A stretch of DNA of 64,000 nt. Origin: Schmidtea polychroa. Its lineage: Eukaryota. The position numbers and the translations under genes are program-made. This document shows positions 4,031 to 46,728 of the stretch, piece by piece; the stretch's first letter is position 1, and the number at the start of each line of letters is the position of its first letter. The notes beneath the pieces were generated by a model that saw only the letters and a program-made list of their open reading frames with translations, did no database searches and was not told the DNA's origin. Where the stretch lies: contig CM097885.1 of the NCBI GenBank assembly GCA_044892525.1, forward strand, positions 11,720,001 to 11,784,000, written 5' to 3'.

Positions 4031-4250
4031 ATTAAAATTGTATTTATTAAAAAATTGATTATGAATCAGTAATGATATCGATGTTTTTTTTATATTCACG
4101 AATTTTCGACAGTCTTTTTCAAGTGAGTTTAATAAATCTTCATCAAACTCACTTGGCAAAAAGGCTGTGTCGAAAATTTGTGAATATCAAAAAAAAACAT
4201 CGATATCTTTATTGATTCATAGTCAATTTTTTAATAAATACAATTTTAAT
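4031..4250. mobile_element. Foldback/MITE-like palindrome
   Basis: ~100-bp arms are near-perfect reverse complements; shorter relatives at ~4868-4995 and ~6006-6135. Confidence 0.7.
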
Positions 4251-6340: not shown

Positions 6341-7132
6341 GAGGAAAAGTTGATTAAAAATATTTACTGATGGCGGCCTCATTTGATATGAATATCCAGT
6401 AGAAATATTTATTAATCTCGTCGACTGAAGAGCTATTATAAATATATATTTCATTAAATCTTTGCGACATTTATTGCTATACAATTGGTTACTTTGTTGT
6501 ATATGCAGAATTTGAATCGGTGTTACCTTGAGATGAAAAACATTATAATTATTACACCCTTAAAGTTAAAGGAAATGATTTTGTTTAATGATATGTTGTG
6601 ATAATTTTTTGTAATTAAACTTTTAGAATGGTATCTGGCTCCATCTATCCTAGGATAAATATTAATAGGCTAAAAGAGTTTCTAATACCTCAAAGTAAAC
6701 TCAACATCCCAGAGAATTATATGATTATTTGTAGCAGCGTTCATGTTTCATAAAGGACTTCATAGATTATTTTAGAGATAATGAGGTGCCGAAGGTGAGA
6801 AGTAGGCTATATTGATCTGATTTCAATATCATTGTTCCACCCTCTTCCAATTTCCTCTTCATAATATGTTACATTTCAATAAATACTTACCTCTTCCATG
6901 TGTATTTTCATCGATATTTAGTAATTCTAGCCTCCAGTTCCCTCTTCCCAGTTCCAACGATTCCTACTCTCAGAATATTATTTTTATCAAAGTTCTTATA
7001 TTGATTAAAATGATTAAAGTTTATAATAAGTTTGACTCATTTAAATAATTTAAAGGGAACTTAATGATAAGTTGTAAGAATCATAATAAGTTATAATGAG
7101 TTTAATATTTGATTTGAGGGATCATTTAATCC

Positions 7133-7223
7133 AATTTGTATTTACACTCATCCCCCGATTTGCGCGGTAGATACGTTCTTCAGAAAGTACCGCGTAAATC
7201 GGGGGTGAGTGTATATACAAATT
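7133..7223. other. GC-rich hairpin
   Basis: AATTTGTATTTACACTCATCCCCCGATTTGCGCGGTA pairs with TACCGCGTAAATCGGGGGTGAGTGTATATACAAATT. Confidence 0.75.
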
Positions 7224-7688
7224 TATACAAACTAATAAAATTTAATTTTAAATATCTAATCTCAAAGTTAGTGTACATATATTATATGCATAAAATATAT
7301 AATTTTAAAAATAATTAAAATCCTGTAAATTTAAACAATCAATTTAATTTTTTAAAAATTTAATAAATTTATGAAAATAAATCTGAAACTAGTAAAAGGA
7401 ATTTTTTTTACCAGGAACATAAAAATAGAAATGTCGGAAAACTATTTGCAGTCGATTTTTGACAAGTTATCATTGAAAAATTATAAAACAAAATTTTAAC
7501 AACATTGTAAAAAGAAAACAAAATTAAAAAATAATTAAAATAGAAGAGAATTTTAAAAATGGAGTTGATTAATTTTTCTAAAAATAATTTCTTTAAGAAA
7601 GTACTTTTTTATAAATTGCAACTATTACAACTTTAGAATAAATATGAAATAAATAGTCTAAATTTTTTTTCATTGAAAAATTAGGAGG

Positions 7689-7853
7689 AGTTATATTAAA
7701 AATAGTATTATAAGCACAAAACCATAATAGTCCTAATTCATAATTTAAATTTTGATCTAATTTAATTGAATCTTGAAAGTTTATAGTAAAGTCTGATTCT
7801 TTTGAATTTATAGATAAAGTTCTTGAATATTTATCTGACATTATGTTTACCAT
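7689..7853 (-). pseudogene. Minor capsid protein (penton), displaced N-terminal part
   Basis: SKESDFTINFQDSIKL...YELGL...YNTIFNIT is the typical penton N-terminus; the continuation is at 14233-14780. Confidence 0.75.
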
Positions 7854-7894
7854 TTTTTTTTAATTATCTTCCGGAAGGTTGCGAAGCTCCATTT

Positions 7895-8353
7895 TCATAG
7901 TAGAGATTTTAAATCATTATAAATTTCTTGGATTAAGGAAGTGAAACCTTCTCCATTATTCAATCTATACAAAACATATAAGCTTAAAATACCACATATT
8001 TTAGTATTATTGGGTTGAACTTGTAAAGAATTAAAAGTATAGTCCTTCGAGGAACTCTTCGAGAGATAGTCTTCAACTTCTTTACTGGGTTTAATCCCAA
8101 AAGAATCAAAGTAGATTGGGACTTCGTCCATATATATACAAACCCAATGAGATCCTTTTTCATTTGAATTTTGATAATTGATTATTATATTCTTTGGAGT
8201 GACCCTTTGACCTTTGACCTTCGGACCTTTCAATTCATTATTCATTAATATTTTTATTTTTAAATTTAAATAATCTGCATAATCTTTTAAATCAAAATTT
8301 GTTTTTGCATTTATTCCAAATGTTTTTAAAAAATCTAATATTGAAGGAGTCAT
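7895..8353 (-). CDS. Adenain-like cysteine maturation protease
   Basis: GSHW, YFDSFG, Q...ICG catalytic motifs. Confidence 0.9.
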   Translation of the reverse strand: MTPSILDFLKTFGINAKTNFDLKDYADYLNLKIKILMNNELKGPKVKGQRVTPKNIIINYQNSNEKGSHWVCIYMDEVPIYFDSFGIKPSKEVEDYLSKSSSKDYTFNSLQVQPNNTKICGILSLYVLYRLNNGEGFTSLIQEIYNDLKSLL

Positions 8354-8582
8354 TTTATATACTTATTAAATTTATCTTTTGAAATTATTCCTTGTTTTAA
8401 CAAATCTTTAGAAATCTTTAAAATATCAGAATCTAAATTATTATGTCCTGCTTTTTTAGCTGCTAATAGTTTTCTTAATTCAATAAAAAGATTGATTGGG
8501 TTTGCAGCCACAGGCATCCCCTTACCCTCTGTAACAACATAACCCTTTCATTTTTATTTAAATAATTCTTTAAATCTTGAAT
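8350..8582 (-). pseudogene. Displaced 3' end of the 13558 gene
   Basis: 8521-8582 is the reverse complement of 14170-14232 (1-nt indel); the frame continues GMPVAANPINLFIELRKLLAAKKAGHNN...QGIISKDKFNKYIK*, with the stop overlapping the protease ATG. Confidence 0.8.
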
Positions 8583-8854
8583 CAATATGAATATGCGCTA
8601 TCTAGGTTTGGATTTTTGTTATTTTTTAGACTATAAATAATCGATTCAAGTTCTTTAACTCTTTCCTGTAATTGTTTCATTTTCTTCAATCTTATATCAG
8701 CAACATCTACAGCCTTCATATAAAAATGTCGATACTTTTCATTATCTACCATCAACTCTTTGATGTATTCTAATGGTTCTTCTTCTCTTCTTTTCATTCT
8801 CTTATGTTTAGCTTCATTCAATTCATTTCTCATTCTTTCTTTTAACTCATCCAT
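8582..8854 (-). CDS. Small charged coiled-coil protein, unknown function
   Basis: 90-aa ORF with AAAAATG start context like neighbouring element genes. Confidence 0.55.
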   Translation of the reverse strand: MDELKERMRNELNEAKHKRMKRREEEPLEYIKELMVDNEKYRHFYMKAVDVADIRLKKMKQLQERVKELESIIYSLKNNKNPNLDSAYSY

Positions 8855-9024
8855 TTTTATAAATATTTTTTTATTGGATATATTAATTTTTGGTAGCTTA
8901 AGTTAAAACGTTTTTGATCTTAAATTTCCAAGAGTTGCCGTTGACCAATCACCTTAAAAATTTGTACAAGTACTAAATCGAGTATGCTGATCAATATTTC
9001 GTTAAAAATAAATTTGAAAAAAAA

Positions 9025-9097
9025 TGACCGAAATGGGATTTGAACCCATTGGTATTGGCAATGCAGTCGAGTGCTATTACCACTAAGCTATTAGAGC
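9025..9097 (-). ncRNA. tRNA-like Pol III cassette 1
   Basis: A box TAGCTTAGTGG, T-arm ATGGG-TTCAAAT-CCCAT (B box), T8 run directly downstream; acceptor and anticodon stems do not pair. Confidence 0.6.
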
Positions 9098-9267
9098 TAT
9101 ACTCAATATAAAATAAGTTGTTAATGTGTGACTATTTATTGATGAAATTAATAATTAATTATTCATTTTCTCGACAACTACCACTCAGATCCATCTGAAA
9201 ATTTAAATATATACTAAAATCAGTACGCTGAATCAGATTCCGTTGAAAAAAAAATATCGAAAAAAAT

Positions 9268-9341
9268 TGACCAAAATCGAAAATTGAACCCGGTACTCCC
9301 GGTGATAAAATTGAAGCCTATTCCCACTCCGCTATAATGGC
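9268..9341 (-). ncRNA. tRNA-like Pol III cassette 2 (diverged tandem copy)
   Basis: A box TAGCGGAGTGG, degenerate B box GGGTTCAATT, T7 run; flanks resemble copy 1 at ~245-bp spacing. Confidence 0.45.
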
Positions 9342-9397
9342 TTACATAATATATTTAATTAATCCTATTTTTTGTGTGTAAATTTTAATATATAAAA

Positions 9398-10684
9398 ATG
9401 AATAATATAAAAATTCAAGAAAAAAATAAATTAAATCTTGATTATAATAAAGAATTTACTCATGAAATCAAGAAAAACGATGTACTTAAAATCTCCCCAA
9501 CTCCAGGATCTATTGCAAACTTAAATCGTAGGGGTGATATAGTTTTTCAATCTCTTCAAACATCAAACCCAATAGATATTTGTAATGCTAAATTATATTA
9601 TAAAATTGAATTAGAAATTGAAGCAAACAAAGATATAACCCTAGAAAATAATTTCTTTCCAAATTTATTCTCCAACATGAGATTAAAACTAGGATCATCA
9701 GAAATTGAATCTGTTTTACATCCAGGAGTATATTCTACAATGTTAAATTTTATTTTGACAGGTTGTGATTATAAAAACGAATATGGTTAATTAACAGGTT
9801 GGATTCCTGATGTTAATAAAGGAGATTTAGATAAAGATGGTTTAGATATAAATTATGGTTATTATAAAAGAGCTGAACTTTATAAATCTAAAAAATTTGA
9901 AGGTTATTTTGAATTAAAACACTTGTTTGGATTCCTTCAAAACTATAATCGTATACTTCATAATGTTTTTATAGAATTAGTTTGTAATAGAGTAGAAGGT
10001 GATAAAAGATTGTTCTATGGAGGTGTAGATACAAAAGCTAAATTAAAATTATCAACACTTGAATTGCATATACCTGAATGGACATTAAATCCACATTCTG
10101 AAATCAAACTCCTTGAAAGATTAAATTCCAACAAGTCTATAAATGTAAATTATTTAAATAGAATCTGTAGTGAATTTAGTATGACAGAGGGTTCAACATA
10201 TTCCATAAAGGTAGCAAATTTAGCATACCGACCAAGATATATCTTGATTGGATTCAAAGAAGTAGATTCATCTTTCCAAAAAAATAACAACTTGTTTATT
10301 CAAAAGATTGGAGTTGATAATTTAAAAACAATCCAAATTCAATTAAATAGTTCTTATTATCCAATAAATAGAATGGAATTTAATATTGAAAATAATGAAA
10401 ACATATTCCCATATCTAAATTATATTGAAACATGTTATGATTTCAAAGTTGAACCGCAATTAAGTTTAGAAGATTTCAAAAATTTATATTCTATATTTTG
10501 TATAAATGTTTCAGACCAAGATGATCGCCTAGCCATAAATAATGTTGATGTTACACTTCATATAACAAAGGATTTTAATTTTAAAGCTAAAGTATATACA
10601 TTAATATTAGAAGAAAAGAAAATAGAAATGAAATTATATGGTGGAAAGATTTCAATAATCGAAAATGTTAGGGGAGATTCTTAA
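9398..10684 (+). pseudogene. Major capsid protein (double jelly-roll type), one nonsense codon
   Basis: ORFs 9398-9790 and 9923-10684 are in frame and joined by open sequence after TAA 9788-9790; LF..MRLKLG...IE, L..LFGF, PRYILIGF, IFCINVS motifs. Confidence 0.85.
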
Positions 10685-19551: not shown

Positions 19552-20751
19552 AGTAGTAGGATGTGGGCCATCCAGATCATGTCCCCTCCAGATCACATAT
19601 ACCCCCTCCCCCCCCCGGGGAAAAAATTTTTTTTTTAAATAAAAGGTCAAGGTCATTTATTTTTTTTTAATTAAATTTTTTGTTTTAATTAAGTGATCCA
19701 GAGGGGACCTACTTTTTTTCTTCCCAAAAATTAATGTTCCTGCCAACAGATTTTATTGACCGATACCTCATCTTAAAGCTCAGTCCAAGACCTTTCGAAT
19801 GAGCTATAGGTATCATATATATCTTTAATAGTTTTAATGTTATTAACATTTAATGACCACCATCTTTTAAAGTTAAATTATTATTATTTGTCAAAATATT
19901 ATTAAGTGATCCAGAGGGAACCTACTTTTTGTCATCCCAAAGATTAATGTTCCCGCCAACATATTATATTGATCGATAGCTTATTTTAAAGCTCTGTGCA
20001 AGACCTTTCTAAGGAGATATAGATTTCTATAATATGATGACTCATCACATTTTTAAAACAAAGACAATGACTCGTCATATTTTTAGAACGATGCCTAATA
20101 TTTTTAGAATGATTACGTCATAATTTTAGAACGATGTCTATTATTTTTAGAATGATGCCTAATATTTTTAGAATGATTACGTCATACTTTTAGAACGATG
20201 CCTATTATTTTTAGAATGATGTCTAATATTTTTAGAACGATTACGTCATACTTTTAGAACGATGCCTAATATTTTTAGAATGATTACATCATACTTTTAG
20301 AACGATGCCTATTATTTTTAGAACGATGCCTTTTAATTTTAGAATGATGCCTAATATTTTTAGAACTATTACGTAATCGATGTCTAATATTTTTAGAATG
20401 ATGCCTAATATTTTTAGAATGATGCCTAATATTTTTAGAACTATTACGTAATCGATGTCTAATATTTTTAGAACGAAGCCTAATATTTTTAGAGCGATTA
20501 CGTCATACTTTTAGAACGATGCCTCTTATTTTTAGAATGATTACGTCATATTTTTAGAACGATGCCTAATATTTTTAGAACGATTACGTCATATTTTTAG
20601 AACGATGTCTAATATTTTTAGAACGATGCCAAATATTTTTAGAACTAATAATTTTTGTTTTAATTATCGAATACGTAAAAATATAATTTTGTTTAAATCG
20701 TTGATTACATATTATTATTTTCTAAGTTTTATTATTATTATTATTATTATA

Positions 20752-20786
<35 letters not shown>

Positions 20787-20849
20787 CTATCCGACAAAAT
20801 ATTCTGTCCCCCTATGGGTATTGCTCACAAAGGTACTACTCACACTCAA
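19552..20849 (+). repeat. Left TIR of element 2, including ~20-bp tandem array
   Basis: Reverse complement of 32008-33431; array of TTTTAGAA(C/T)GATGCCTAATA and TTACGTCA units at ~20080-20645. Confidence 0.9.
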
Positions 20850-20869
20850 TATGTCGTAAATTATTATTA

Positions 20870-20892
20870 TTATTATTTCAAATACAAGTTCA

Positions 20893-20961
<69 letters not shown>

Positions 20962-21076
20962 CAAAAAATCTAAAATATGGTTTACACACACACACACACA
21001 ACCCATTAACAATTATTTGTATCAATATTAGTGAAAACCTAAAATATCTTCTACACACATATACAACCCATTAAAC

Positions 21077-21138
<62 letters not shown>

Positions 21139-21251
21139 CAAAAAATCTAAAATATGGTTTACACACACACACACAACCCATTAACAATTATTTGTATCAA
21201 TATTAGTGAAAACCTAAAATATCTTCTACACACATATACAACCCATTAAAC

Positions 21252-21307
<56 letters not shown>

Positions 21308-21420
21308 CAAAAAATCTAAAATATGGTTTACACACACACACACGACCCATTAACAATTATTTGTATCAATATTAGTGAAAACCTAAAATATCTTCTACAC
21401 ACATATACAACCCATTAAAC

Positions 21421-21492
<72 letters not shown>

Positions 21493-21720
21493 GCAAATAT
21501 TAGTCAAAAACATAAAAACACACACTCAACCAATTAACAATTATTATTATCAATATTATTATTATTGCAAATACTAGTCAAAAACTTAAAATTTTTTTTT
21601 TACACACACACAACCCATTAACAATTATTATTATCAATATTAGTGAAAACCTAAAATATGGTTTACACACACACACACAACCCATTAAACTTTATTATTA
21701 TCATTATTATTATTATAATT
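20870..21720 (+). repeat. ~170-180 bp tandem repeat with AAT and CA tracts
   Basis: Three near-identical units CAAAAAATCTAAAATATGGTTTACACAC...CCCATTAAACTTT plus degenerate copies. Confidence 0.9.
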
Positions 21721-22066
21721 ATTATTATTATTAGTGAAAAAACCTTAAATAATTTTTACATACTAAGTTATGGGGTAGAGTATTATTATGTTTGCAGTAT
21801 TCTGCCTTTACAGGAAGTTGTCAATAAGGAGCGATAATTTTACACACACATTCTATATACACATACCTTGTTTAACATGGGTGTATATACTCATAGTTTA
21901 TCCGACAAAATATTCTGTCCCCCTATGGGTATTGCTCACAAAGGTACTACTCACACTCAACATATCGCAAGGGTATATTAATTAGGGTTAGTAAATAAAA
22001 CCTATCACACATACTATTTAAACTATAAAAATCAAGACAAGAGAGGACAAGGCAAAGTTTATGCAA

Positions 22067-22291
22067 TTATTATTGCCAGGCCTAATGAGCAGTGACCAAA
22101 TATCTGTGCCTGAAAGACACGGTGGATATTTGTTCGCGTCCACAAGGGTCGTCTGTGCCTCCCCCAAGTGGGGTCAAAAGAACCTGGGCATTATAGTTTT
22201 CCGTACGGAACATTACGCCTAGCATGGGTAGTCAACTACCAGCACATTCGAAACGTATAATTTCAAAATACATGCGTCATTGGCACTATAA
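22067..22291 (+). ncRNA. Candidate structured RNA with degenerate hammerhead-like frame
   Basis: GC-elevated island with multiple hairpins; CTAATGA 22082, GAAAC 22250, stem ACGTAT/ATGCGT, GTC 22276, TGCCA/TGGCA closing stem. Confidence 0.35.
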
Positions 22292-24905
22292 CCAAATTAA
22301 TTAATGTTTTCACTAACACAAATATATATTTACAGAGGCCTCCCACTAGTTGGATTACAACCGCCCACCACGACGATCAGCTTGTAAATATATATTAATT
22401 AAGGGATAAAGAGGACCCACCCAACCCTATTATATTTAATTTACAAATTTTTCTCGCTCTTCTGATGGTATTCTATCTCAAAATTATCATCTCCATCGGG
22501 CCATTTGGAATACATCTTGCGAATTGGACGTATTTCTTAGTTTCTGATGTGGCGTCAACTATCATTGCTAAAATTTATATTGATTTAAAAGCAATTAACT
22601 TACATTATCTAGCATTTTATCGTCACAGGCTTGATAAATTAGGCAACTGTTATTTGTGGTATACTTTTTCAATGTCATTTCCCACCATAAAACACAGATA
22701 CCTAAATATAATATATATATTTTAAAGAATTAATTCATGTCTTACATTAATAATAATATTCTTCAGGTAGTACTTTACAATATCTCATTGCTAAAACATC
22801 GGTTTTTCCCATTTTTCTTGACATTCGTTGAAAGTTTACATAATTTAAGTCTGATAATTCATGTTGAAGGACACCCACAATCAGCTAATTCATTTAAGAA
22901 ATCCAGAACATAGCAATGTTTCACCATTTTGTCTGGTTCATTTTCTTCTATAATTCATGTTTTAATAAGAAATTTCTAAATCCAGAACATAAGTCATTTA
23001 GTGTTTCACCATTTTATCTGGTTCATCTTCTTCATAATCATATAATTCATTTTCTTCATTACTAAGTAAAATAATTAAAATATTGTAGTAAATTCTTTAT
23101 TTACTTACTTTATGGATACTAAAACGAAAGAAATAAAGTTATATCAAAAGTATATTTAAATAAATTAAATTTAAATAATTTAATTTAGTTATTTAAAAAT
23201 ATTTAAACAATTTAGTTATTTAAGCATATTTAAACATTAACATTATTATATAGTATAATTTTATATAATATTATAATTTTATGTACACTTATATATCCTT
23301 CATTTAATTTTTTAAATTCAAAATTTATAATGAAGATTCTTTGAATTAAAAAATATTCTGTTAGTATTTCCAGGCAGTAAACAACGAATTCAATAATTAA
23401 AATCTTAATTTTCATGTTGTTAGGGTTGTGGCCAGAATTTAATCGCCATCTAATCGTTTGTTCTCAATTTCGCTCATTTTTGTTCAAAACATTCAGGTGA
23501 GTTGTTATCTGGAAAGTTTCTTTGAGCTCAGTTTTGTTAAAACACTCACGGTATTTTTGAGGGACGTGACACTGGGAATAAATTAACAATGGGTGGTCAT
23601 CCATACATGTTGTTGGTTTGAACTGTTGATTTATTTTAGAAATATGTATATTAAAAACATTTAAGGTATCATTCAGTAAAATAATATAGTATTTTTGAGT
23701 ATTTTTAGTTGATTTATAAATAACAGTATTTTGATATATCAATAAAGACCATATACTCCTAGTTTATCCGACAAAATATTCTGTCCCCCTATGGGTATTG
23801 CTAGCAAGGGTACTGGTCACATTCAACATGTCGCAATATTAATCATTTAGAAATTCTTAGGTAAGATAATCAGAAATTTGTGAATATTTTAAATGTAACT
23901 TTACACTTATGTCGAGCGACTAATTTATTGGTTAACTTTGTAGTCATTTAAAGCAAAAATTAATTTATTCATCTAATGTTCGTTACAATAGTTAATAATA
24001 TGAGAAAAACATGGTCATTATTCATTGATAATTTTAAATTCTTTATCATTTGGAGTAAATTTGTTTGAGGCAAAAATAATTAAAGGAGTCATAATAGAAA
24101 TATGGTTATCATTTAACCAAATAAGGTGCTTATTAGTTAAAAATATATATTATAAAGTAACAATTATTTTCTAATTTAATTAGATGATCATTAGACGTAA
24201 TATATCTTTGCGAGAAATTTAAGATGTTTGAGTAACCAAAACATGGATATTTTGTGCGATAAATTTATTAATAGTGCTTAATTTTCTCATTTTTAGTCAT
24301 TTAAAATAATATTTAGCAAAGGTAATTTAGCAAAATATCACTTATCCATCCGATAATAATATTCCTTCAATAGATTTTACCTTTAATATTCAACCGATTT
24401 AATTTCTAATTAAAATCATAAAATTCCTTCAATAAAGATCAATTTTCTTTAACCGTTGTCGATTTCCAACTTTTAAGTCAATATTTCTCAAGTTTTGTCA
24501 CTGATGTCCCCACAATGAATAAAATAACTTCTTAAGTAAAATAATTTAAAGCAATAACCTTTGATATCAATTATCTCTAAATATTTCAAATATTTCATTG
24601 TGAAAACCAAGTAAATTGATCATTAACCCTAAAAGACTTAATAAAACAGTGGATAATTAATAAAAAACTGGTTCTAAAACATAAATCTAAATTACTGTGC
24701 AATGACATTCATCACAACCTAATAAACCTCTAAAACGATATAATTTCACAGGAACTATTATTAATTCATAGCTAAATACTGACTATTTCCCTTTAAAATT
24801 TTACCAATAAGAACATTGTCGATTTAAATAGAGATTTCAAACATTTCCACCATAACCGATTCCTCACCAAATATTTCTACCATTTTAAACACCCCCTTAA
24901 AAATC

Positions 24906-24965
<60 letters not shown>

Positions 24966-25048
24966 TTAATAATAATAATAATAATAATATTAATAATATT
25001 AATAATAATAATAATAATAATAAAATAATAATAATATTAATAAAATAA

Positions 25049-25079
<31 letters not shown>

Positions 25080-25109
25080 AACAACAACAAAGGATACAAA
25101 ATACATTTA

Positions 25110-25493
25110 TTAATCATCAAATTTTTTATACAACAACCAAGCTAAACAATGTTGACCGCATGTTTGTGTCAAGGGATTTTGAAACATTGTTTTATTATAT
25201 ACAATAGGTTTCCCCATTGTTTGTAGTTTTGATACCAACAAAGCAGGGTAATAGAAACCCATAGGATCGAACACGAATATATTACTAGGTTTCACATATA
25301 TAGCAATCCAATGTTCTCCACCAAGATGAGACGATTGAGTATTGACGATTATGGCTTGATTATTGCTCAAATATGGGATTTTATCGAGAGGAAAAACTCC
25401 TACAAATTCATTTCCCAATATCTGTTTTCCAATTCTATTGACCTGAACAGAACTACTTTAATAAATTAAACAGTATTGAAAAACTTACTCCAT
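25110..25493 (-). CDS. Adenain-like protease, two exons (intron 25453-25488)
   Basis: ATG GA|gtaagt...tag|T TCT GTT CAG gives MDSVQVNRIGKQILGNEFVGVFPLD; GEHW, FDPMG, Q..LTQTCGQHC. Confidence 0.9.
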
Positions 25494-25521
25494 GACAACT
25501 TTTTGATGTTTCTGTATACAT

Positions 25522-26742
25522 TTATACTAGCACGGTTCTATTTGCAGTAATTTGAACTTCATTTTCAAATACTCCATATATAATAACATGTACCGGTTCA
25601 GTAATGGCCTTTGCAAACTTTATATCCAGTCGTAAATTCCCGTTTTGTGGTAATTGACTCTGATTTAAATCAAAATCGGGAGCTAGAACAAATGTGAAAA
25701 ATGGGTATTTGCTTTTAAATTCTTCAAGAGTTATTCCACAATTCAAGTTTTTATCTAAATAACCCAGATTTCTAACAATACTCTGCATATATGTCGCACA
25801 GTAATTATCATTCTCGAAATCTTGAGTATATGTTTCTCTATAATCAGTATTTTTCGATAAAGTCAATGAAGTAACACCAAAATTTTTGAAAATTGAGCTG
25901 GAAGCAGTATACGATCCATTATATTGCGTTTCACTTTGAAATGTTACCAGAATAAAATTAGGCATTCTTCTGTCACCAAATATTTGTTCTTTATAGAATG
26001 ATGAAGCACCTTTAGCAATAGCAAATTGTACAATTTCCTTTGTTTTTAAAGGATAAATTGCATGTTTTGAATTAAGCCCCAATTGATGACCAGCTAATAC
26101 TGACGGGTCTACTCGAACTCTTCTCACCAATAATTTTGCATCAACTAATTGACATATTGGTGCACCAGTTGCACTAGTAAGAGACAATGCAGAATCAGAC
26201 CTTTTCAGTCTAATATGTATATTAACTCCCGGTAGTAAATATTTCGGTTGATCCATAAAATCAAGTTGTAATGATGAGCACATAGTGAATACTTTTGAGC
26301 CTTTAACCCACTTTTTTCTTTCATCATCACTGCCATAACCCATAGGTGTAAGACATGTATTTTTAGTATCAGAATTGTAATTTAAAATAGTTTCTATTAA
26401 TGCCTTGTGAATGAATGTATTATTTCCGCCCTCAATCTTGATATTATTAAATCCCAACACTGCATCTTTAAACAGAGTATGAAACATGAAATTGTTCGGT
26501 ATTACATCTGTATTGGCATCCAAAACCTTTCTATCTTTATCTACAACCTTGATCTGAACAGTCAATAAAGTATCGTTCAAATCTAAATATTCAGTTTGCG
26601 AACCATTAATATAAAACTCGATATCATTTCTACTATCAGTAATTGAATTCATAGGAAAAACTTCCTCAAAGGCACCAAATTCTATTACTGCCTGGGGCGA
26701 CGGTCTATCAAATATACATAATTCGGATTTACCACAAATCAT
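25522..26742 (-). CDS. Major capsid protein
   Basis: 406 aa; SEL.IF..P..Q, YLDL.DT.L, Q.KYLLPGV, G.LRLDIKF, QI...R.V Maverick capsid motifs. Confidence 0.9.
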   Translation of the reverse strand: MICGKSELCIFDRPSPQAVIEFGAFEEVFPMNSITDSRNDIEFYINGSQTEYLDLNDTLLTVQIKVVDKDRKVLDANTDVIPNNFMFHTLFKDAVLGFNNIKIEGGNNTFIHKALIETILNYNSDTKNTCLTPMGYGSDDERKKWVKGSKVFTMCSSLQLDFMDQPKYLLPGVNIHIRLKRSDSALSLTSATGAPICQLVDAKLLVRRVRVDPSVLAGHQLGLNSKHAIYPLKTKEIVQFAIAKGASSFYKEQIFGDRRMPNFILVTFQSETQYNGSYTASSSIFKNFGVTSLTLSKNTDYRETYTQDFENDNYCATYMQSIVRNLGYLDKNLNCGITLEEFKSKYPFFTFVLAPDFDLNQSQLPQNGNLRLDIKFAKAITEPVHVIIYGVFENEVQITANRTVLV

Positions 26743-27101
26743 TTTGCAAATATAGTTCCATGTCCTTTCATTCGTTTGTTTATACGCGATATTCCATGCC
26801 CTTTACGTTTTGGCGCTGGGACTGGAGGTGTATCTTTTTGAAACATACCAGCAACTCCAGGTAGAACCTTCCCTAACTCAGCTAAAGCATTTGTTTTTAG
26901 GGATGGTAATATTTTCTGTTCATTCATAATCACATCTTTTGCAGTTTTCATGCCAAAACTACCAATACGTTTAAGAATGGGAAGTGCAAATCTCCCTATT
27001 GTTTTTAACCAACCTGATCCATACTGTTTACCAATAAAATATGGTAATTCACCACCAGATTGGCTATCACTATACATACTAATAATATCGGAATTAGCCA
27101 T
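26739..27101 (-). CDS. Small basic core-like protein
   Basis: Q.GG...F.G.Q.G.G motif, amphipathic helix, K/R tail; position between penton and MCP. Confidence 0.75.
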   Translation of the reverse strand: MANSDIISMYSDSQSGGELPYFIGKQYGSGWLKTIGRFALPILKRIGSFGMKTAKDVIMNEQKILPSLKTNALAELGKVLPGVAGMFQKDTPPVPAPKRKGHGISRINKRMKGHGTIFAK

Positions 27102-28161
27102 CTACTTTACGAAAATGTAGTGTCAAATGAGTTTTTGAGTCTTTTGGGAAGTTTATAAGTTTTCCACTATCGTCACGAATATTTATTTCTATATTGTTTA
27201 TACATGAGCTTGAAATTGGTAAATACATGGGATTATCTATATTTATATTGACAACTTCATCATGTTCATATTTTCCAATCCACACCGATTTCAATAGAGG
27301 AACACTGGAATCACCAACTATTATAGGCTCAATAATATTAGTATATATGAACATTTGTTGATGATGTTCAAGTATTCTTGGTTTACGTATACCAGCCGAT
27401 TTTTCCCGATATTGCTGCTTCTCTAATCCAAGTGTATTTGTCAAATTTTTATCAAATGTAACTTCGCAAATGTCATCATTCAAACTGAAGGTAAATAACA
27501 ATTCTTTCACAATGTCCAAACTTTTAAATATGTGTGAACAATTATACTTTAAATATTTAAGTAACACATCAAGTTTATCAATATATAATTCGTCAGCGAA
27601 GGTGAATGATTCTTCAACTTCATTATTATACGACACTGAAATTTTGATTTCTTCTCTCATTACACTGTTTGCTTCAAATAGATCAAAGCGTAATAAATAT
27701 TCTGTTTCCATAACTTCATTTTTCAACTTATTGCAACCCATTCGTCTGGCATCTTCAATATATTCGAATGTTATTGTAAATGGTTTAAAATCACAACTGA
27801 TATTTAATCCATCCTTGTAAAACATAGTGCAATGCTGATCTAATATTTGATTCGGAATATGATATGTTTTATCATAATTACTGATAATAAAGATACCACT
27901 ACATGTTTTCATAGCATTCCTTTTGAAATCAATCTTACATTGACTATAAAATGGGAATGTATTGTACACGAATGTAAAATCTTGCAGTGCAACTTCCCAG
28001 TCACCATTTAAAGAAATCGGATTCTGGAGATTGACCATGAATTTACTGGCTTGATTATCTGGATGAATAAGCGGGCAACTATTGCTTGGTAAAATAGTAT
28101 AAAAATTCACTTTACTAGATCCTTTTCTGATATCCATGATGGGTTTTGATAACCATGCCAT
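27094..28161 (-). CDS. Minor capsid protein (penton)
   Basis: FY.ILPSNS, L.GDWEVAL, FIYTNIIEP..VGD..VPLL, IRDD.G..I.F, LHFR; exact start uncertain. Confidence 0.9.
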   Translation of the reverse strand: MAWLSKPIMDIRKGSSKVNFYTILPSNSCPLIHPDNQASKFMVNLQNPISLNGDWEVALQDFTFVYNTFPFYSQCKIDFKRNAMKTCSGIFIISNYDKTYHIPNQILDQHCTMFYKDGLNISCDFKPFTITFEYIEDARRMGCNKLKNEVMETEYLLRFDLFEANSVMREEIKISVSYNNEVEESFTFADELYIDKLDVLLKYLKYNCSHIFKSLDIVKELLFTFSLNDDICEVTFDKNLTNTLGLEKQQYREKSAGIRKPRILEHHQQMFIYTNIIEPIIVGDSSVPLLKSVWIGKYEHDEVVNINIDNPMYLPISSSCINNIEINIRDDSGKLINFPKDSKTHLTLHFRKVDG

Positions 28162-29162
28162 TTGACATAGTATTGTTTATCCTTGCCTTTATTTTTAGTT
28201 TTCAATATCTTCTGAATTCTAAATACTTTTGGGGGAGGAATAACTTGTAATTCTTGTTCATAAAATTTTCCTTGTACAATATTGTTATCATCGTCTTTGA
28301 TGACATACATTACAGGATTCTGTTTAGTATTTATTTTTGAAATTACAAAGACTTCATCACTCCAATTTGTATCGAAATTTTTAATAAATGGTGATGCACT
28401 AATTTTACTAATTCTAACATGGTCACCTACTTTATATTTCGGTTTTGTAATTTTTTCAGGTTTTTTAGAATAGATTGTTTTTGACGTGATATCAATCGGC
28501 CTTAATCCATTCAGTCCTTGATGTGATGAGTGATTATAACTGGTTATTATTTTTGGTAAAACCAATACCCATTTTTTATTACCTTGATGCATGAATAATT
28601 TCTTTAATCTATCTCTCAAAGTTCGGTTAAATCTTTCAACATGAGCAGCTTTGTATTGAGAATGTACTGAGTAATGGTTTATTTTCAATTTAATGAGGAT
28701 TTGCTTGACTTTACTGTTGTAGAATTCTTTACCTAAAATAATAATAATAATAATAAAAATAATAATATTAATACCTAAATCAGTTTGCAAGTTTTTAGGA
28801 TATCCGTCTTTAAATAAATGATTAACAGCTTTGGACATTTCATCTGCAGATTTTGCCTTGACGGGTATTGCTCGGGCAAACCGACTGAATACATCAATAC
28901 ATGTTAAAATATATTTATACCCATTGTTAATTTTCGAATAGGGTATCATCTCCATCAAATCCATTTGCCATAAATCATTTATTCCATATGTTTTATAAGC
29001 TCTTGTTGGGAATCGTTTCTGCATTGGTTTGTTCAAACTGTACGCAAGCTGGTCTGATAACCACTTCTGAGTTTCCTTTTTCGAATTCGGAACTCTTTTC
29101 CTTAATTTTGCCACTCCACCAAAACCGGCTTCGTCTTCCGGGTTCGTCCAAATCTTCTCCAT
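28107..29162 (-). CDS. rve integrase with C-terminal chromodomain (intron 28733-28774)
   Basis: WQMDL, IDVFSR, TDLG|KEFYN restored by removing a 42-nt GT-AG intron, VERFNRT, YYVKWHGY..PSW. Confidence 0.92.
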   Translation of the reverse strand: MEKIWTNPEDEAGFGGVAKLRKRVPNSKKETQKWLSDQLAYSLNKPMQKRFPTRAYKTYGINDLWQMDLMEMIPYSKINNGYKYILTCIDVFSRFARAIPVKAKSADEMSKAVNHLFKDGYPKNLQTDLGINIIIFIIIIIILGKEFYNSKVKQILIKLKINHYSVHSQYKAAHVERFNRTLRDRLKKLFMHQGNKKWVLVLPKIITSYNHSSHQGLNGLRPIDITSKTIYSKKPEKITKPKYKVGDHVRISKISASPFIKNFDTNWSDEVFVISKINTKQNPVMYVIKDDDNNIVQGKFYEQELQVIPPPKVFRIQKILKTKNKGKDKQYYVKWHGYQNPSWISEKDLVK

Positions 29163-29220
29163 TACAACAAGAAGATTTAATATTAAATTTAATGTCTGGT
29201 AATGAAGGATTAGCACCCAT
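28993..29220 (-). CDS. Overprinted small ORF with N-myristoylation signal
   Basis: MGANPS...SSCC; ATG 4 nt after the upstream stop; kept open in element 3 (47982). Confidence 0.5.
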   Translation of the reverse strand: MGANPSLPDIKFNIKSSCCNGEDLDEPGRRSRFWWSGKIKEKSSEFEKGNSEVVIRPACVQFEQTNAETIPNKSL

Positions 29221-29223
29221 TGT

Positions 29224-29712
29224 TTATGATCGACTTCCTATTATTCCACCTAATAATGATATTGCTAAAGGTATCAATGCACCGATAAATCCCCCTTGTT
29301 GTTTATATATAATTTTTCTCATTTGTTGACGATTTTTATTATTTACTAATGATAGCAAAGGTTTCCTATGTTTACTCAATAATTGCTTTTTAGATTTACT
29401 GATTTTAATCTTGCCTTTGACTACTTTAAGTATAATATCGAGTAAATCATCGACAACATAATTTGGAAAAGATTGCAAAATACTGTTTCTTTTCATACTT
29501 GGTGCCTTTAACAATGTATTGAAAAACGGGAAACTCCGATGATTTTTAACAACTTTTACTTTCTTAGTGGTTTTACTTTTTGGTTTAGGATTTTTCGAAA
29601 TAAGATTCATTGCAGGAAAATTTTCTGTAATAAGATCTTTAGATGGAGTATAACTAGTTGTTGGTGGAACTTTTGGTTGTTTTTTACCCGATATCCTTGT
29701 TTTTGAAAACAT
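29224..29712 (-). CDS. Basic core/membrane-active protein
   Basis: K-rich; ends Q.GGFIGALIPLAISLLGG, typical of Maverick proteins next to the ATPase. Confidence 0.75.
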   Translation of the reverse strand: MFSKTRISGKKQPKVPPTTSYTPSKDLITENFPAMNLISKNPKPKSKTTKKVKVVKNHRSFPFFNTLLKAPSMKRNSILQSFPNYVVDDLLDIILKVVKGKIKISKSKKQLLSKHRKPLLSLVNNKNRQQMRKIIYKQQGGFIGALIPLAISLLGGIIGSRS

Positions 29713-29725
29713 GATTTATATGTTT

Positions 29726-30364
29726 TCAACTTTGTTTTGAACTTTGTTTATATACCATGGCACCTTTTGGGTTGAAAATATCTGTTTTTACCCGTATATC
29801 ATCAGGGCATTGTTGTGTGAAATCGAGAAATATATACCCATGCGGTATTTTCGTGGCATCTTGAAATGCACTGATAAGAAAATTACGGTTATTAGGGTAT
29901 GCTTGTCGTCCAAGAAAATCAATGACAGTTGCATCTCTAGGATTCTTGAAAATAACTAAATATTGTACATTTAAATTACGTGTTCGATGTGCACCACCTT
30001 GATGAAATAGATTTTGTGTTATGAAAATAACTGTTACACCAACATGTCTGCTGATTTTTGTGAATAAATTATTAAAGTCCTTTTCTTTATTGGCTTCTTG
30101 ATACAAATCATCGATAATGATGACATCATCTTTCTTCAAACGACTTGACCAGTTTTTATCAAAGCCCTTTACTATTTTCATGTTTTTCAACTGACAGAAA
30201 CTTGATTGCGTCAATCCGTGTTCTTCGTCGGCGCCCCTATGCCAATAAATATTGTTGAATTTTGTTTTAAACAAATTTGATTTTAGTAATTTACAAACAA
30301 ATAAAGTTTTCCCGCTACCACTTGGACCAACGATTTGGTATACTGCATCATTTCGTAATTCCAT
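29726..30364 (-). CDS. DNA packaging ATPase
   Basis: GPSGSGKT, IIIDDL, SRH, ITQN, FKNPRD. Confidence 0.93.
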   Translation of the reverse strand: MELRNDAVYQIVGPSGSGKTLFVCKLLKSNLFKTKFNNIYWHRGADEEHGLTQSSFCQLKNMKIVKGFDKNWSSRLKKDDVIIIDDLYQEANKEKDFNNLFTKISRHVGVTVIFITQNLFHQGGAHRTRNLNVQYLVIFKNPRDATVIDFLGRQAYPNNRNFLISAFQDATKIPHGYIFLDFTQQCPDDIRVKTDIFNPKGAMVYKQSSKQS

Positions 30365-30469
30365 TTTTTAAAATTTAAACTATATAATTATTGTTTATAT
30401 TGATAATTTAAATGAACTCTGTTTTTAAATACCTATATATATCAAAGTTTTTAAAATTATTTCATTAAA

Positions 30470-30934
30470 ATGCTTTCAAATATAAATTACAGGGCAAAAA
30501 CTGATGTATCAAAAATGGTATTTCCAATAGGGAAACCACAACAACTTATCAATAGAAGTAATAAATATCCAATAATATATTTCAAAACTGGTAAATGTAG
30601 AATTATGGGGTGTAAGGAAATAATCAAAGCTAGTGAATATAATGTTTATGATTTAGAAATACAATCGATAACCGTAACTTCCGATATAGGTTTTTCTTGT
30701 AATTTAAATAAATTAGCTAAATTAATACCATGCTTTTATGAACCAGAATTATTTCCAGCTTTGAGATATATAAAATATAACCCTATGTGTGTAAATATAT
30801 TCGCTAGCGGTAAGATAGTAATTCTTGGAATAAAAAATATTGATTACAAAAGTATAGTTGATAATATCATATCTGAAATTAAATCAATAATTGAAGGAAA
30901 AGAATTTTTAGATTTTTTATTATCACTTAATTAA
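30470..30934 (+). CDS. TATA-binding-protein-like protein
   Basis: Two TBP half-repeats: IYFKTGKCRIMGCK and YEPELFPAL.Y...VNIFASGKIVILG.K. Confidence 0.85.
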   Translation: MLSNINYRAKTDVSKMVFPIGKPQQLINRSNKYPIIYFKTGKCRIMGCKEIIKASEYNVYDLEIQSITVTSDIGFSCNLNKLAKLIPCFYEPELFPALRYIKYNPMCVNIFASGKIVILGIKNIDYKSIVDNIISEIKSIIEGKEFLDFLLSLN

Positions 30935-31042
30935 TTATTTATCATTCAATTAAAACAAAAACATACTGCAATCTGATTGGATGATAAACAATAGTCATAG
31001 GTATAAAAACCCTGTACCATTTCATTTTAATCATAATTCACA

Positions 31043-31462
31043 ATGACCAAGAAAATTTCAAGCACTGAAAAACCAAAAGTAGTTCCAGAACTTGTACAAC
31101 CTGTTCAAATGTTCCACAACTACAAAATGTATTTTTTAAAAGAAGAAATCAATATGAAATTGGTGTCACCGATCAAGCTAATTCCTACCCAATTTCAATT
31201 CTTAACCGGCACGCTTTCAATGTTAGATATTAAAACCATAGATGATGTTTTCAAAAGGTTGAATACGAATCTATCATGCAATCAAAATGCATTTTTCAAC
31301 AACCGATATGCAAAATTTTATGATTCCTTTGATGAAATCAGTTTCAAAGAAAACGAAAATTGGTATATAACAATTACAATCCAAGGATATAAAGTTGATA
31401 ATAATGATGTGTATTCTCCAATTTGGAAAATTATGTCTGCTAGACTTTCACAGTTATTTTAA
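31043..31462 (+). CDS. Hypothetical protein conserved with element 3
   Basis: 139 aa, homologue at 45040-45459; ATTGG and TATAAAA upstream, AATAAA downstream. Confidence 0.75.
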   Translation: MTKKISSTEKPKVVPELVQPVQMFHNYKMYFLKEEINMKLVSPIKLIPTQFQFLTGTLSMLDIKTIDDVFKRLNTNLSCNQNAFFNNRYAKFYDSFDEISFKENENWYITITIQGYKVDNNDVYSPIWKIMSARLSQLF

Positions 31463-31558
31463 TGTTGTATTTAATAAATGTATTTAGTCATATTTGTTTT
31501 CGCTTATATTCTATATTTTCTATAAACAAATATATACTATAGTTTTAAAATACTAATA

Positions 31559-31917
31559 ATGACTACAGAAAAAGGTTAATATGATTAGTTAATTATTGAA
31601 TTATTTAATATTTAGAATTTATAATAAACTTTTTATTGGAAAAATTAGCAGAAATATCTGGTGTGAAAATGGCGGATATATTATCTGTTACAAACGCATT
31701 AAATATAGACTGGGTAGCAGAGAGTGAAGATTCGGAATTTGATGAAACAGATGAAGAAAACACTCAAGATGATGAGGAAAGCATTCAAGAAATTGATGAA
31801 CCTATGGAGGAATTTACGGATACTGAACCATGTGTATATAGGGATTGTATAGATCATGTTGTTGAAAATGTTATGAACTGTGGAGATGATGAATGTGAAT
31901 GTGTTAATAAATTTTAG
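31559..31917 (+). CDS. Acidic protein with Cys tail, two exons (intron 31575-31615)
   Basis: Splicing gives MTTEKEFIINFLLEKLAEISG...; the same intron position is present in element 3. Confidence 0.7.
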
Positions 31918-32007
31918 TGTATATTTAAAGAATAATATTTAGAATTTAGAAAGTTTTGTCTTGAATATTTTTACCAGTAACTTTGTGAGTAGTACATTTG
32001 TAACTTG

Positions 32008-32072
32008 TTGAATGTGAGTAGTACCTTTGCGAGCAGTACCCATAGGGGGACAGAATATCTTGTCGGATAGAT

Positions 32073-32142
<70 letters not shown>

Positions 32143-32143
32143 C

Positions 32144-32221
<78 letters not shown>

Positions 32222-33431
32222 CTTAGAAAATAATAATATGTAATCAACGATTTAAACAAAATTATATTATTACGTATTCTATAATTAAAACAGAAGAATT
32301 ATATAATCAATGATTTAAACAAATTATATAATCATCGATAATTAAAACAAAATTATTAATTCTAAAAATATTAGGCATCGTTCTAAAATTATGACGTAAT
32401 CGTTCTAAAAATAAGAGGCACCATTCTAAAAATATTTGGCATCGTTCTAAAAGTATGACGTAATCGCTCTAAAAATATTAGGCATCGTTCTAAAAGTATG
32501 ACGTAATCGCTCTAAAAATATTAGGCTTCGTTCTAAAAATATTAGACATCGATTACGTAATAGTTCTAAAAATATTAGGCATCATTCTAAAAATATTAGG
32601 CATCATTCTAAAAATATTAGACATCGATTACGTAATAGTTCTAAAAATATTAGGCATCATTCTAAAATTAAAAGGCATCGTTCTAAAAATAATAGGCATC
32701 GTTCTAAAAATATTAGGCATCGTTCTAAAAATATGACGTAATCAATCTAAAAATATTAGACATCATTCTAAAAATAATAGGCATCGTTCTAAAAGTATGA
32801 CGTAATCATTCTAAAAATATTAGGCACCATTCTAAAAATAATAGACATCGTTCTAAAATTATGACGTAATCATTCTAAAAATATTAGGCATCGTTCTAAA
32901 AATATGACGAGTCATTGTCTTTGTTTTAAAAATGTGATGAGTCATCATATTATAGAAATCTATATCTCCTTAGAAAGGTCTTGCACAGAGCTTTAAAATA
33001 AGCTATCGATCAATATAATATGTTGGCGGGAACATTAATCTTTGGGATGACAAAAAGTAGGTCCCCTCTGGATCACTTAATAATATTTTGACAAATAATA
33101 ATAATTTAACTTTAAAAGATGGTGGTCATTAAATGTTAATAACATTAAAACTATTAAAGATATATATGATACCTATAGCTCATTCGAAAGGTCTTGGACT
33201 GAGCTTTAAGATGAGGTATCGGTCAATAAAATCTGTTGGCAGGAACATTAATTTTTGGGAAGAAAAAAAGTAGGTCCCCTCTGGATCACTTAATTAAAAC
33301 AAAAAATTTAATTAAAAAAAAATAAATGACCTTGACCTTTTATTTAAAAAAAAAAATTTTTTCCCCGGGGGGGGGAGGGGGTATATGTGATCTGGAGGGG
33401 ACATGATCTGGATGGCCCACATCCTACTACT
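32008..33431 (-). repeat. Right TIR of element 2
   Basis: Outer ~550 bp almost identical to the left TIR; array and AAT lengths differ. Confidence 0.9.
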
Positions 33432-34682: not shown

Positions 34683-34794
34683 TTTTAGAAAAATATTTTT
34701 ATTGGATACCCTGTTTTGATTTTTTATGATGTTTTTATATTTATTTTCATAATGTGACAGTATAATTTTTAGATTTTTATAACAAAAATCCAAA

Positions 34795-34875
34795 GCCCGA
34801 TAGCGCAGTGGGCTAGACTGGCACAGTGGTTCAAATAGATAGCGGTTCAAATCCTAACTACGATTAGTTTTTTTT
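34795..34875 (+). ncRNA. tRNA-like Pol III cassette 3
   Basis: A box TAGCGCAGTGG 34801, B box GGTTCAAATCC 34844 (second GGTTCAAAT at 34828), T8 terminator 34868-34875. Confidence 0.6.
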
Positions 34876-36065
34876 CAACATAAAATAATATTAAAAATTT
34901 GAAAATAATATTGAAAATGATGTGGGTATCTTAGATTTATAAAGTAGTTGTATATTTTATTTTATTTATTTTATTTTTTTATTAATTAATTAATTTTTAA
35001 ACATAAATATGAAAAAAAAATTATTGAAACGGGTGATGGTGGCGAACCGGTAATTATCGCCACCTGTCTTTCGAACACCCCCGGATCGAATTTTTAATGT
35101 GCACATTTATTTCTCAGTTGTTTTCGGACCTCTTTCGGATTCACTTTCGAATTCATTTGTACTTTCGAGCAGCACGCTTAAAACGCCGATGAAATCGTAT
35201 TCGAGCGAGAAGCGAATAATAAGGTGTGCTGCTATTATCGGATTGATTCTGATGTATGAGTCTGGCCAGCTTGTATATTAGAAGAGATTTGATAAACGAA
35301 AGAGGTTGAAATGATCCGGATCAAAAAAACTGTTGAGGGGACAGTGAAAAAAAAATACCACTGTCCCCTCAGAGCAGTTTTACTATTTTTCATTTATTTT
35401 TTAATTTATATAATTTAAAATCAATAATCTGATAAAGATCAACTCCGGAGTTTGATTGATCCCAAATAGCCCTCTAACTTTTTCATAATGCCATTTTCTT
35501 TTCTATTCTCTTTTTAGTTTGAAGCTTTTGAGTTTGAGGCTTTAAAGATTAAGGGTGGTTGTTGTTTAAAATATGGGGTTAAAATACTATAAAAGCATAG
35601 GTTTTATGTTGTTTTTCTAATGGTTTAAGCGTAATGGAGGTATGTTTTTGTTGGGAGGGCTGTTTGGGTTGGGTATATATACACACTACTAGGAGGGGTT
35701 TTAATTGAAACTAATATTAATATAATTTTACCTTATTTTTAATAAGAGGGTAACGGTAGTGTATATTAAATACTTTTAGGATAAAAAAAAATTAAAAAGT
35801 CCAAACCACCTTCAAATTCTTAAGTTCTTATCGTAAAGAATATATATTTTTCAATGTTGCTAGTTATTTCATTTTTTTATAAAATATGGAATTTTGTATG
35901 TGGAAATTTCATATTAGTGTTTTAATGGAGGACATTGTGAATAATTTAGTGTAGTATTTGTCAATTGGTTCTTGTGCTGGACAAAGCAATTAGACCGCTA
36001 TTGGCTGAGAGATAAGCCAATTAACTGAATGATAAAATATTGATGTCAATGAAAGTGGATACATC

Positions 36066-46263: not shown

Positions 46264-46728
46264 TTAATTAAGTGATAATAAAAAATCTAAAAATTCATTT
46301 CCTTCAATTATTGATTTAATTTCAGATATGATATTATCAACTATACATTTGTAATCAATATTTTTTATTCCAAGAATTACTATCTTACCGCTAGCGAATA
46401 TATTTACACACATAGGGTTATATTTTATATATCTCAAAGCTGGAAATAATTCTGGTTCGTAAACACATGGTATTAATTTAGCCAATTCATTTAAATTACA
46501 AGAAAAACCTATATCGGAAGTTACGGTTATCGATTGTATTTCTAAATCATAAAGATTATATTCACTAGCTTTGATTATTTCCTTACACCCCATAATTCTA
46601 CATTTGCCTGTTTTGAAATATATTATTGGATATTTTTTACTTCTATTGATGAGTTGTTGTGGTTTCCCCATTGGAAATACCATTTTTGATACATCAGCTT
46701 TTGCCCTGTAATTTATATTTGAAAGCAT
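46264..46728 (-). CDS. TBP-like protein
   Basis: Intact homologue of 30470-30934. Confidence 0.85.
   Translation of the reverse strand: MLSNINYRAKADVSKMVFPMGKPQQLINRSKKYPIIYFKTGKCRIMGCKEIIKASEYNLYDLEIQSITVTSDIGFSCNLNELAKLIPCVYEPELFPALRYIKYNPMCVNIFASGKIVILGIKNIDYKCIVDNIISEIKSIIEGNEFLDFLLSLN

Follow-up and report, generated by a model that had tools for sequence, protein, structure and literature searches.

Upstream of the major capsid protein gene of a Polinton in Schmidtea polychroa lie two tRNA-derived RNA polymerase III (Pol III) promoter cassettes, U1 and U2, which were probably captured from the ribosomal DNA (rDNA) spacer of the host and are carried in the Polinton as a dispensable passenger. 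They are located in a 64,000-nt stretch of contig CM097885.1 (hereafter the window) from an AT-rich host genome of 781 Mb. A sequence-only reading had put the pair forward as possible analogues of the adenovirus VA RNAs. For this pair the outcome is mostly a correction, the VA-RNA look-alike being host rDNA spacer.

Two degenerate tRNA-like cassettes in the window

U1 (9268..9341; A box 9334-9324, B box 9290-9281, T7 run 9266-9260) and U2 (9025..9097; A box 9090-9080, B box 9046-9037, T8 run 9024-9017) are both present on the minus strand and are predicted to be tRNA-derived cassettes with type 2 Pol III promoters. They are 73-74 nt long, and in both the B box lies 33 nt past the A box and the T-run follows immediately after the place of the discriminator base. 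A scan for an A box, a B box and a T-run returned three sites in the 64-kb window (U1, U2 and a third at 34801) and none in any of 30 block shuffles. Judged by a box consensus which we take to be that of type 2 promoters, U2 has no violation at 16 positions and U1 has one, its B box being without the final conserved C. The two A boxes are 244 bp apart, and the units, identical at 41/73 positions, form part of a ~245-bp duplication with a local alignment score of 163, against a mean of 65.7 (SD 8.3, maximum 93.5) in 500 shuffles. The sequence-only reading was thus right in describing two minus-strand units of ~73 nt with A box, B box and T terminator in a diverged tandem duplication, and its proposal of tRNA-type Pol III promoter cassettes inside a Polinton is supported, as predictions, by the type 2 boxes.

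The same reading had claimed that acceptor and anticodon pairing is absent, and had called for comparison with a tRNA model. This comparison gave a divided answer: U2 scores 32.4 bits with the Rfam tRNA model (cut-off 29), but U1 is not among the Rfam tRNA matches and ARAGORN returned no tRNA in the 64-kb window. In the Rfam alignment, U2 pairs at 5/7 positions of the acceptor stem, 2/5 of the anticodon stem and 5/5 of the T stem. U1 pairs at 5/7 of the acceptor and 4/5 of the T stem. Neither unit has the intact cloverleaf of a functional tRNA, but the pairing is damaged rather than lacking. The predicted transcripts, each of ~80 nt, fold no better than shuffled sequence for U1 (z 0.07) and modestly better for U2 (z -2.47). 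Among the three host tRNAs compared, tRNA-Cys is nearest to U2 (alignment z 9.6, against 7.0 for tRNA-Lys). A pattern of the Cys anticodon arm has 1,020 matches in the genome, and host tRNA genes also occur in long tandem arrays (L088-L117, L182-L189) with periods of 424, 278 and 281 bp.

The Polinton carrying the cassettes

The surrounding genes code for a double jelly-roll capsid protein (PF21738), an A32 packaging ATPase (PF04665), a retroviral-like integrase (PF00665) and a protein-primed polymerase B (PF03175), the combination that marks Polinton/Maverick elements. The capsid gene (9398..10684, plus strand; PF21738 E-value 2e-23 on its downstream part) stands head to head with the cassettes, as had been stated, and is broken in the window by an in-frame stop near 9788. 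Polintons are bounded by terminal inverted repeats with target duplications of 5-8 bp (10.1101/2023.08.22.554363). Both features were found in the two other copies checked, each with a 6-bp target duplication; the terminal repeats of one measure 946 bp and are 94.6% identical between its two ends. The window copy retains the right terminal inverted repeat (34779..35690, plus strand), the inverted counterpart of which adjoins the equivalent of 8594 in most other copies, and is without the left one. It is rearranged at 7126-8594: its left end carries, in inverted orientation, the protease and the beginning of the penton gene, with a long palindrome (7126-7232) marking the edge. A near-identical copy occurs on another contig (C147).

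A second, unrelated Polinton, recognised by its ORFs and a 6-bp target duplication, is located inside the polymerase gene (19552..33431), and the scan found no A/B-box cassette in it. The family of this second element encodes a TATA-binding-protein-like ORF, found on the plus strand at 30470-30934 and 46264-46728, with a PF00352 match (E-value 1e-15) for the first of these.

The rDNA intergenic spacer as the probable source

U1 and U2 lie in a 490-bp block (8891..9380, minus strand) composed of two host rDNA intergenic-spacer subrepeats of ~245 bp each. The block is identical at 275/280 and 245/250 positions (98%) to all five rDNA intergenic spacers tested, and at 277/281 and 254/260 positions to the spacer of locus L313. 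U1 has a 100% identical counterpart in the rDNA spacer, and U2 is 96-99% identical to two to three spacer copies per rDNA unit. The only non-Polinton locus among 59 loci bearing U1 or U2 is L313, an rDNA unit. Its 18S and 28S genes lie on the minus strand, and between them the plus strand carries one different cassette, then U1, then three U2 repeats. The spacer cassettes are thus antisense to the rRNA genes, in subrepeats of ~243 bp. Among 40 unplaced contigs picked blind, 11 cover the main-type spacer site. U1 is present in 10 of these, nine of which have two or three U2 copies, while in the tenth the stretch ends at U1. In 10 of the 11 main-type spacers the units therefore have the position and the variable copy number of an rDNA subrepeat between 28S and 18S; the remaining spacer is without the block. 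A second rDNA type, represented by two of the 40 contigs (L364, L372), has an 18S 92% identical to that of the main type, a different spacer and no cassettes. The second type and the one main-type unit without the block indicate that the block is not essential to rDNA and could itself have been inserted there long ago. Another, different A/B-box unit occurs ~240 bp before U1 in the L313 spacer (4244-4320) and at the same site in other spacers, and its equivalent is retained in the rDNA unit that lacks U1 and U2.

Animal rDNA spacers are already known to contain Pol III (5S) genes. The NOR-5S units described for turtles and crocodiles (PMC8789306) and for nototheniid fish (PMC10138776) are likewise Pol III units in the 45S rDNA spacer, and in the turtle case they are likewise antisense to the rRNA genes (PMC8789306). 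The spacer units of S. polychroa differ from NOR-5S in being tRNA-derived, in the loss of the cloverleaf and in their arrangement as three to four ~243-bp subrepeats. Neither tRNA-like rDNA spacer subrepeats nor Pol III cassettes or structured non-coding RNAs in animal Polintons were found in the open-licence literature. In the accessible text of the adintovirus paper, tRNA comes up a single time, in a legend concerning other viruses (PMC8502044), and that of a nematode Polinton preprint makes no mention of it (10.1101/2023.08.22.554363).

The block is bordered on each side by a 6-bp motif (8885-8890 and 9381-9386), which is present once at empty sites, twice at filled sites and also in the spacer at the point of entry. 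On the side away from the capsid gene it is followed by a 90-aa ORF to which no function was assigned (8582..8854, minus strand), and in copies without the block this ORF is joined straight to the region upstream of the capsid gene. The block is a sub-interval of the host spacer, and the Polinton lineage would have gained it through repair at this 6-bp microhomology, in the stretch that separates the capsid gene from the 90-aa ORF. Filled and empty copies have both spread widely. A one-letter difference between the Polinton and rDNA forms of U2 is fixed in all 16 Polinton copies compared. In the coordinates of L313, the Polinton-borne pieces span 4438-5420, 4372-5466, 4360-5448 and 4461-5466, with 5139-5388 in an older subfamily; all stop inside the spacer, at no fewer than four differing points. 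Three pieces outside Polintons extend further into the spacer (to 5586, to 5593 and beyond 6000). The older subfamily, which was recovered by way of its downstream terminal region rather than the boxes, carries in its terminal repeats a U2-only piece ~87% identical to the spacer. Of its 11 U2 copies, five have the same 16-nt deletion between the boxes, and another three have lost bases at the A box (8/11 damaged). Spacer pieces appear to have been captured from rDNA at least twice.

Transfer in the opposite direction would have the cassettes arise in Polinton ends and enter the main rDNA spacer long ago, where they multiplied by concerted evolution, the Polinton copies being later refreshed from rDNA. 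The second rDNA type without cassettes is in keeping with such a course, as are the U2-type cassettes in both terminal repeats of the older subfamily. Furthermore, U1, U2 and the terminal cassettes of the Polinton share bases just after the A box that host tRNA-Cys does not have, and the resemblance of U1 to the terminal cassettes over its first ~20 bases leaves room for a still older flow from Polinton to rDNA. Against this, U2 is already linked to downstream spacer in decayed copies outside Polintons (79-86% identical), and the spacer showed neither a Polinton terminus nor a remnant of a Polinton gene. A tree of the 163 shared columns (28 rows, one short row omitted) is poorly resolved, with one starred inner branch among 25, and cannot root the direction. 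This opposite route is considered unlikely and would in any case touch only the deep origin of the cassettes, the window block being still spacer-like at 98%. A macrosatellite with a period of ~1,245 bp (L346-L348, L319) also contains a decayed U2 with downstream spacer sequence.

Distribution of the block among Polinton copies

The Polinton family comprises ~2,000 or more copies, a capsid-start motif having 1,972 exact matches in the genome. The U1-or-U2 pattern has 3,255 exact matches, and its reversed control none. The first 100 of these 3,255 matches represent 59 loci, of which 51 are head to head with the capsid motif and seven more lie in Polinton context by BLAST, giving 58 Polinton loci and the one rDNA locus. 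Over the same genome range, a unit adjoins 51 of 88 capsid motifs. Unit matches outnumber capsid matches by a factor of 1.14 within the range sampled and of 1.65 genome-wide, with ~1,000 matches left over, and element-borne U1/U2 pairs are estimated at ~1,100 or more. Among 30 capsid loci taken in genome order, without regard to the block, 16 have the U1/U2 pair and one has a truncated U1 (block counted as present in 17/30), while 13 are without. The expectation that the units would be conserved in other copies of the family is thus borne out only in part, and a viral origin for them is contradicted both by these 13 empty copies and by the 98% identity of the block to host rDNA spacer. Four sequencing runs presumed to be RNA were examined as assembled contigs; those of two runs, from one study, cover the stretch, and in both runs the joined, block-less form (joint 8884-9381) is found as well.

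In a capsid tree of 64 copies (of 75 loci, four short ones and seven duplicates having been omitted), presence and absence of the block are scattered and force at least four changes, a pattern that fits recombination or repeated loss as well as a single gain. A sister subfamily, making up 21 of the 64 rows, has no cassette between capsid start and terminus and has spread nonetheless. This absence is no proof of the ancestral state, as the ends of the subfamily have been replaced by a short terminal unit. The end unit (L118-L142) measures ~230 bp, has short inverted termini of its own, resembles a miniature element and lies 40-270 bp before the capsid start.

A tRNA-derived SINE of the host, inserted in this copy, would explain the tRNA-derived head and the short direct repeat at the block ends. 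It would be expected to form dispersed solo copies with an A-rich tail, whereas the 59 sampled loci are Polinton (58) or rDNA (one). In addition, 40 bp of the block precede the A-box unit, the block has T-tracts and no A-tail, and a pattern relaxed to admit diverged relatives has 20 genome matches, 13 of them in one array. A SINE insertion is hence hardly credible, in agreement with the sequence-only reading, which had named a dispersed SINE as the finding that would overturn it.

A tandem array in the host was also considered as a donor and rejected, since it is one locus (13/13 exact matches) and its spacer is unlike those of U1 and U2 (z 0.2 and 0.1). It consists of tRNA-like cassettes (L053 1-5900 and L051 5000-5700, near 46.7 Mb of G000:C4) with a period of ~220-230 bp, in which A box, B box and T-tract are kept. 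The spacer of this array is similar to that in the terminal repeats of the older subfamily (z 5.2, both being AT-rich), and a copy of the Polinton family is inserted in it.

Comparison with viral small RNAs

VA RNAs are ~160 nt long. VA1 is transcribed from a type 2 promoter (PMC8223928), and VA RNAs form stable hairpins that are cut by Dicer (PMC2777419). U1 and U2 are similar in being two tandem type 2 Pol III units with terminators, as are VA RNAI and VA RNAII (PMC8223928, PMC2777419), and the virion proteins of the Polinton are related to those of adenoviruses. The estimated number of element-borne pairs, and the activity in vivo of a lone tRNA-like module of MHV68 (PMC4337559), also lend some weight to the idea that U1 and U2 yield small RNAs serving the virus as RNAi decoys or effectors. 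Unlike VA RNAs, however, the units are short, weakly folded, of a type identical to host rDNA and absent from many copies. They have no long stem of the kind that Dicer could cut, and no hairpin would be transcribed with them, as the T-tract comes at once after the unit. A role as VA-like RNAs is therefore highly unlikely, and the analogy drawn in the sequence-only reading does not hold for units so short and dispensable.

No cassette was found near the capsid gene by pattern, ARAGORN or Rfam (the last on 12 of 35) in 35 metagenomic capsid relatives at 23-54% identity, which amount to 83,454 bases and mostly have little upstream DNA. Two capsid relatives at 73-74% identity exist. Searches of viral contigs gave no match for a single capsid protein or for the cassette pattern and one distant locus for the capsid alignment; a genome search with distant capsids recovered the same Polinton family only. 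Polinton-like viruses of protists carry tRNA genes, with 558 Rfam tRNA matches reported in 8,300 genomes and acquisition from hosts proposed (PMC12220804). In contrast to those tRNAs, which are discussed there in terms of decoding, U1 and U2 are promoter-only remnants traced to the rDNA spacer.

Conservation of the boxes and possible functions

A third cassette, U3 (34794..34875, plus strand; A box 34801-34811, B box 34844-34853, T8 run 34868-34875), is located at the inner end of the terminal inverted repeat and so occurs twice per intact copy. It is present in 27 of the 30 capsid loci. The older subfamily has two cassettes in a row at this place, with the same boxes and different interiors, and tandem doubling of cassettes in the terminal repeat is frequent.

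U1 and U2 differ at 1/16 box positions and at 31/57 other positions (p=0.0004). The same picture is obtained for most pairs among U1, U2, the terminal cassettes, the L053 array and host tRNA-Cys, the exception being the close relatives U3 and U3' (p=0.13). As the cassettes were recognised by their boxes, ascertainment inflates this signal, but it cannot yield several box-complete paralogues where shuffles give none. Within the young family the power is low: U1 shows 0/272 changes in the boxes and 2/982 elsewhere, and U2 1/256 and 18/882, of which 16 are at one fixed site. The divergence between U1 and U2 long predates capture, which places selection best in rDNA, and it is there that the boxes were most likely preserved. 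Since the ~80-nt transcripts fold weakly, selection is more likely to have acted on the binding site than on the RNA. TFIIIC would be recruited by the boxes, TFIIIB and Pol III would follow, and transcription would yield an ~80-nt RNA unable to act as a tRNA. The part retained by selection would be the binding site, its most probable role being that of a chromatin boundary within the rDNA spacer. In yeast, tRNA genes and their boxes act as barriers, the A and B boxes being what matters, and one such case is at the rDNA locus (PMC7990762). The cassettes described here differ from the yeast barriers in being degenerate and in being carried by a mobile element as well, and their barrier role is putative. 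An animal rDNA spacer with promoter-only, tRNA-derived Pol III subrepeats that have kept the boxes and lost the cloverleaf is a candidate nucleolar TFIIIC boundary.

In the Polinton, the same predicted binding could keep the capsid promoter open, and the block may still bind TFIIIC beside it; TFIIIC-bound insulators had been the other suggestion of the sequence-only reading. A stronger proposal is that the Polinton keeps captured cassettes for this purpose, TFIIIC/TFIIIB shielding or opening the capsid promoter, with U1/U2 and U3 interchangeable and capture favoured. Hints of such a benefit are that some cassette lies no more than 400 bp from the capsid start, head to head with the gene, in 28 of the 30 copies, that both boxes are retained in each of four to five diverged cassettes of the lineage, that spacer pieces seem to have been acquired more than once, and that cassettes are so often doubled in the terminal repeat. 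On the other hand, the sister subfamily has spread without a cassette between capsid start and terminus, damaged U2 copies have been amplified, and the second Polinton in the window is without a cassette. This proposal is possible but doubtful. Carriage as a dispensable passenger remains the preferred reading for U1 and U2.

A folded region in the terminal repeat

A better candidate than U1 and U2 for a viral RNA is a folded non-coding region of the terminal repeat (35030..35312, plus strand), proposed as an element-encoded RNA from its fold, a compensatory helix and poly(A) ends. The fold of 35025-35312 has a z of -3.96, the longest ATG-initiated ORF on the plus strand is 35 aa, and no Rfam family matches at the cut-off. 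The region is conserved across subfamilies at 64-96% identity. Over 29 copies, 40 named pairs are paired at 97%, compared with 93.1% for shuffles and 41-52% after sliding. In one 11-bp helix both partners have changed at 7/11 pairs, mostly from one subfamily split, and a 22-bp hairpin contains two invariant G-U pairs. These pairing statistics offer good but not independent support for the predicted structure, as it was drawn from the same sequences and most double changes stem from one subfamily split. Contigs of two runs of one study, presumed to be RNA, end in non-templated A-runs at 35310-35312 (one contig in X1, six in X2). A rival explanation is that the region forms hairpins in single-stranded DNA during replication rather than an RNA.

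The TMERs of MHV68 consist of tRNA-like heads joined to miRNAs (PMC4337559). Like these clustered, non-aminoacylated tRNA-like units near a genome end (PMC4337559), the cassettes lie near the end of the Polinton. The miRNA hairpins follow behind the tRNA part of a TMER, whereas U1 and U2 end at a T-tract with no such hairpin behind it, and the TMER model would suit 35030-35312 better. Tentatively, the Polinton lineage may run a Pol III module at its ends, made up of promoter-only cassettes and a folded RNA of ~290-360 nt with a pre-miRNA-like hairpin, resembling VA RNAs or TMERs and repeatedly recruiting rDNA-spacer cassettes, with U1/U2 as the latest. If this is true, an animal Polinton encodes a structured non-coding RNA, and if the terminal-repeat region is a functional RNA, Polintons, as relatives of adenoviruses, use non-coding RNAs too. 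The block-bearing and block-less copies in one genome provide a natural control both for the TFIIIC boundary in the spacer and for the terminal-repeat RNA. Motifs resembling A and B boxes are also seen in the alignment of the 5' part of 35030-35312.
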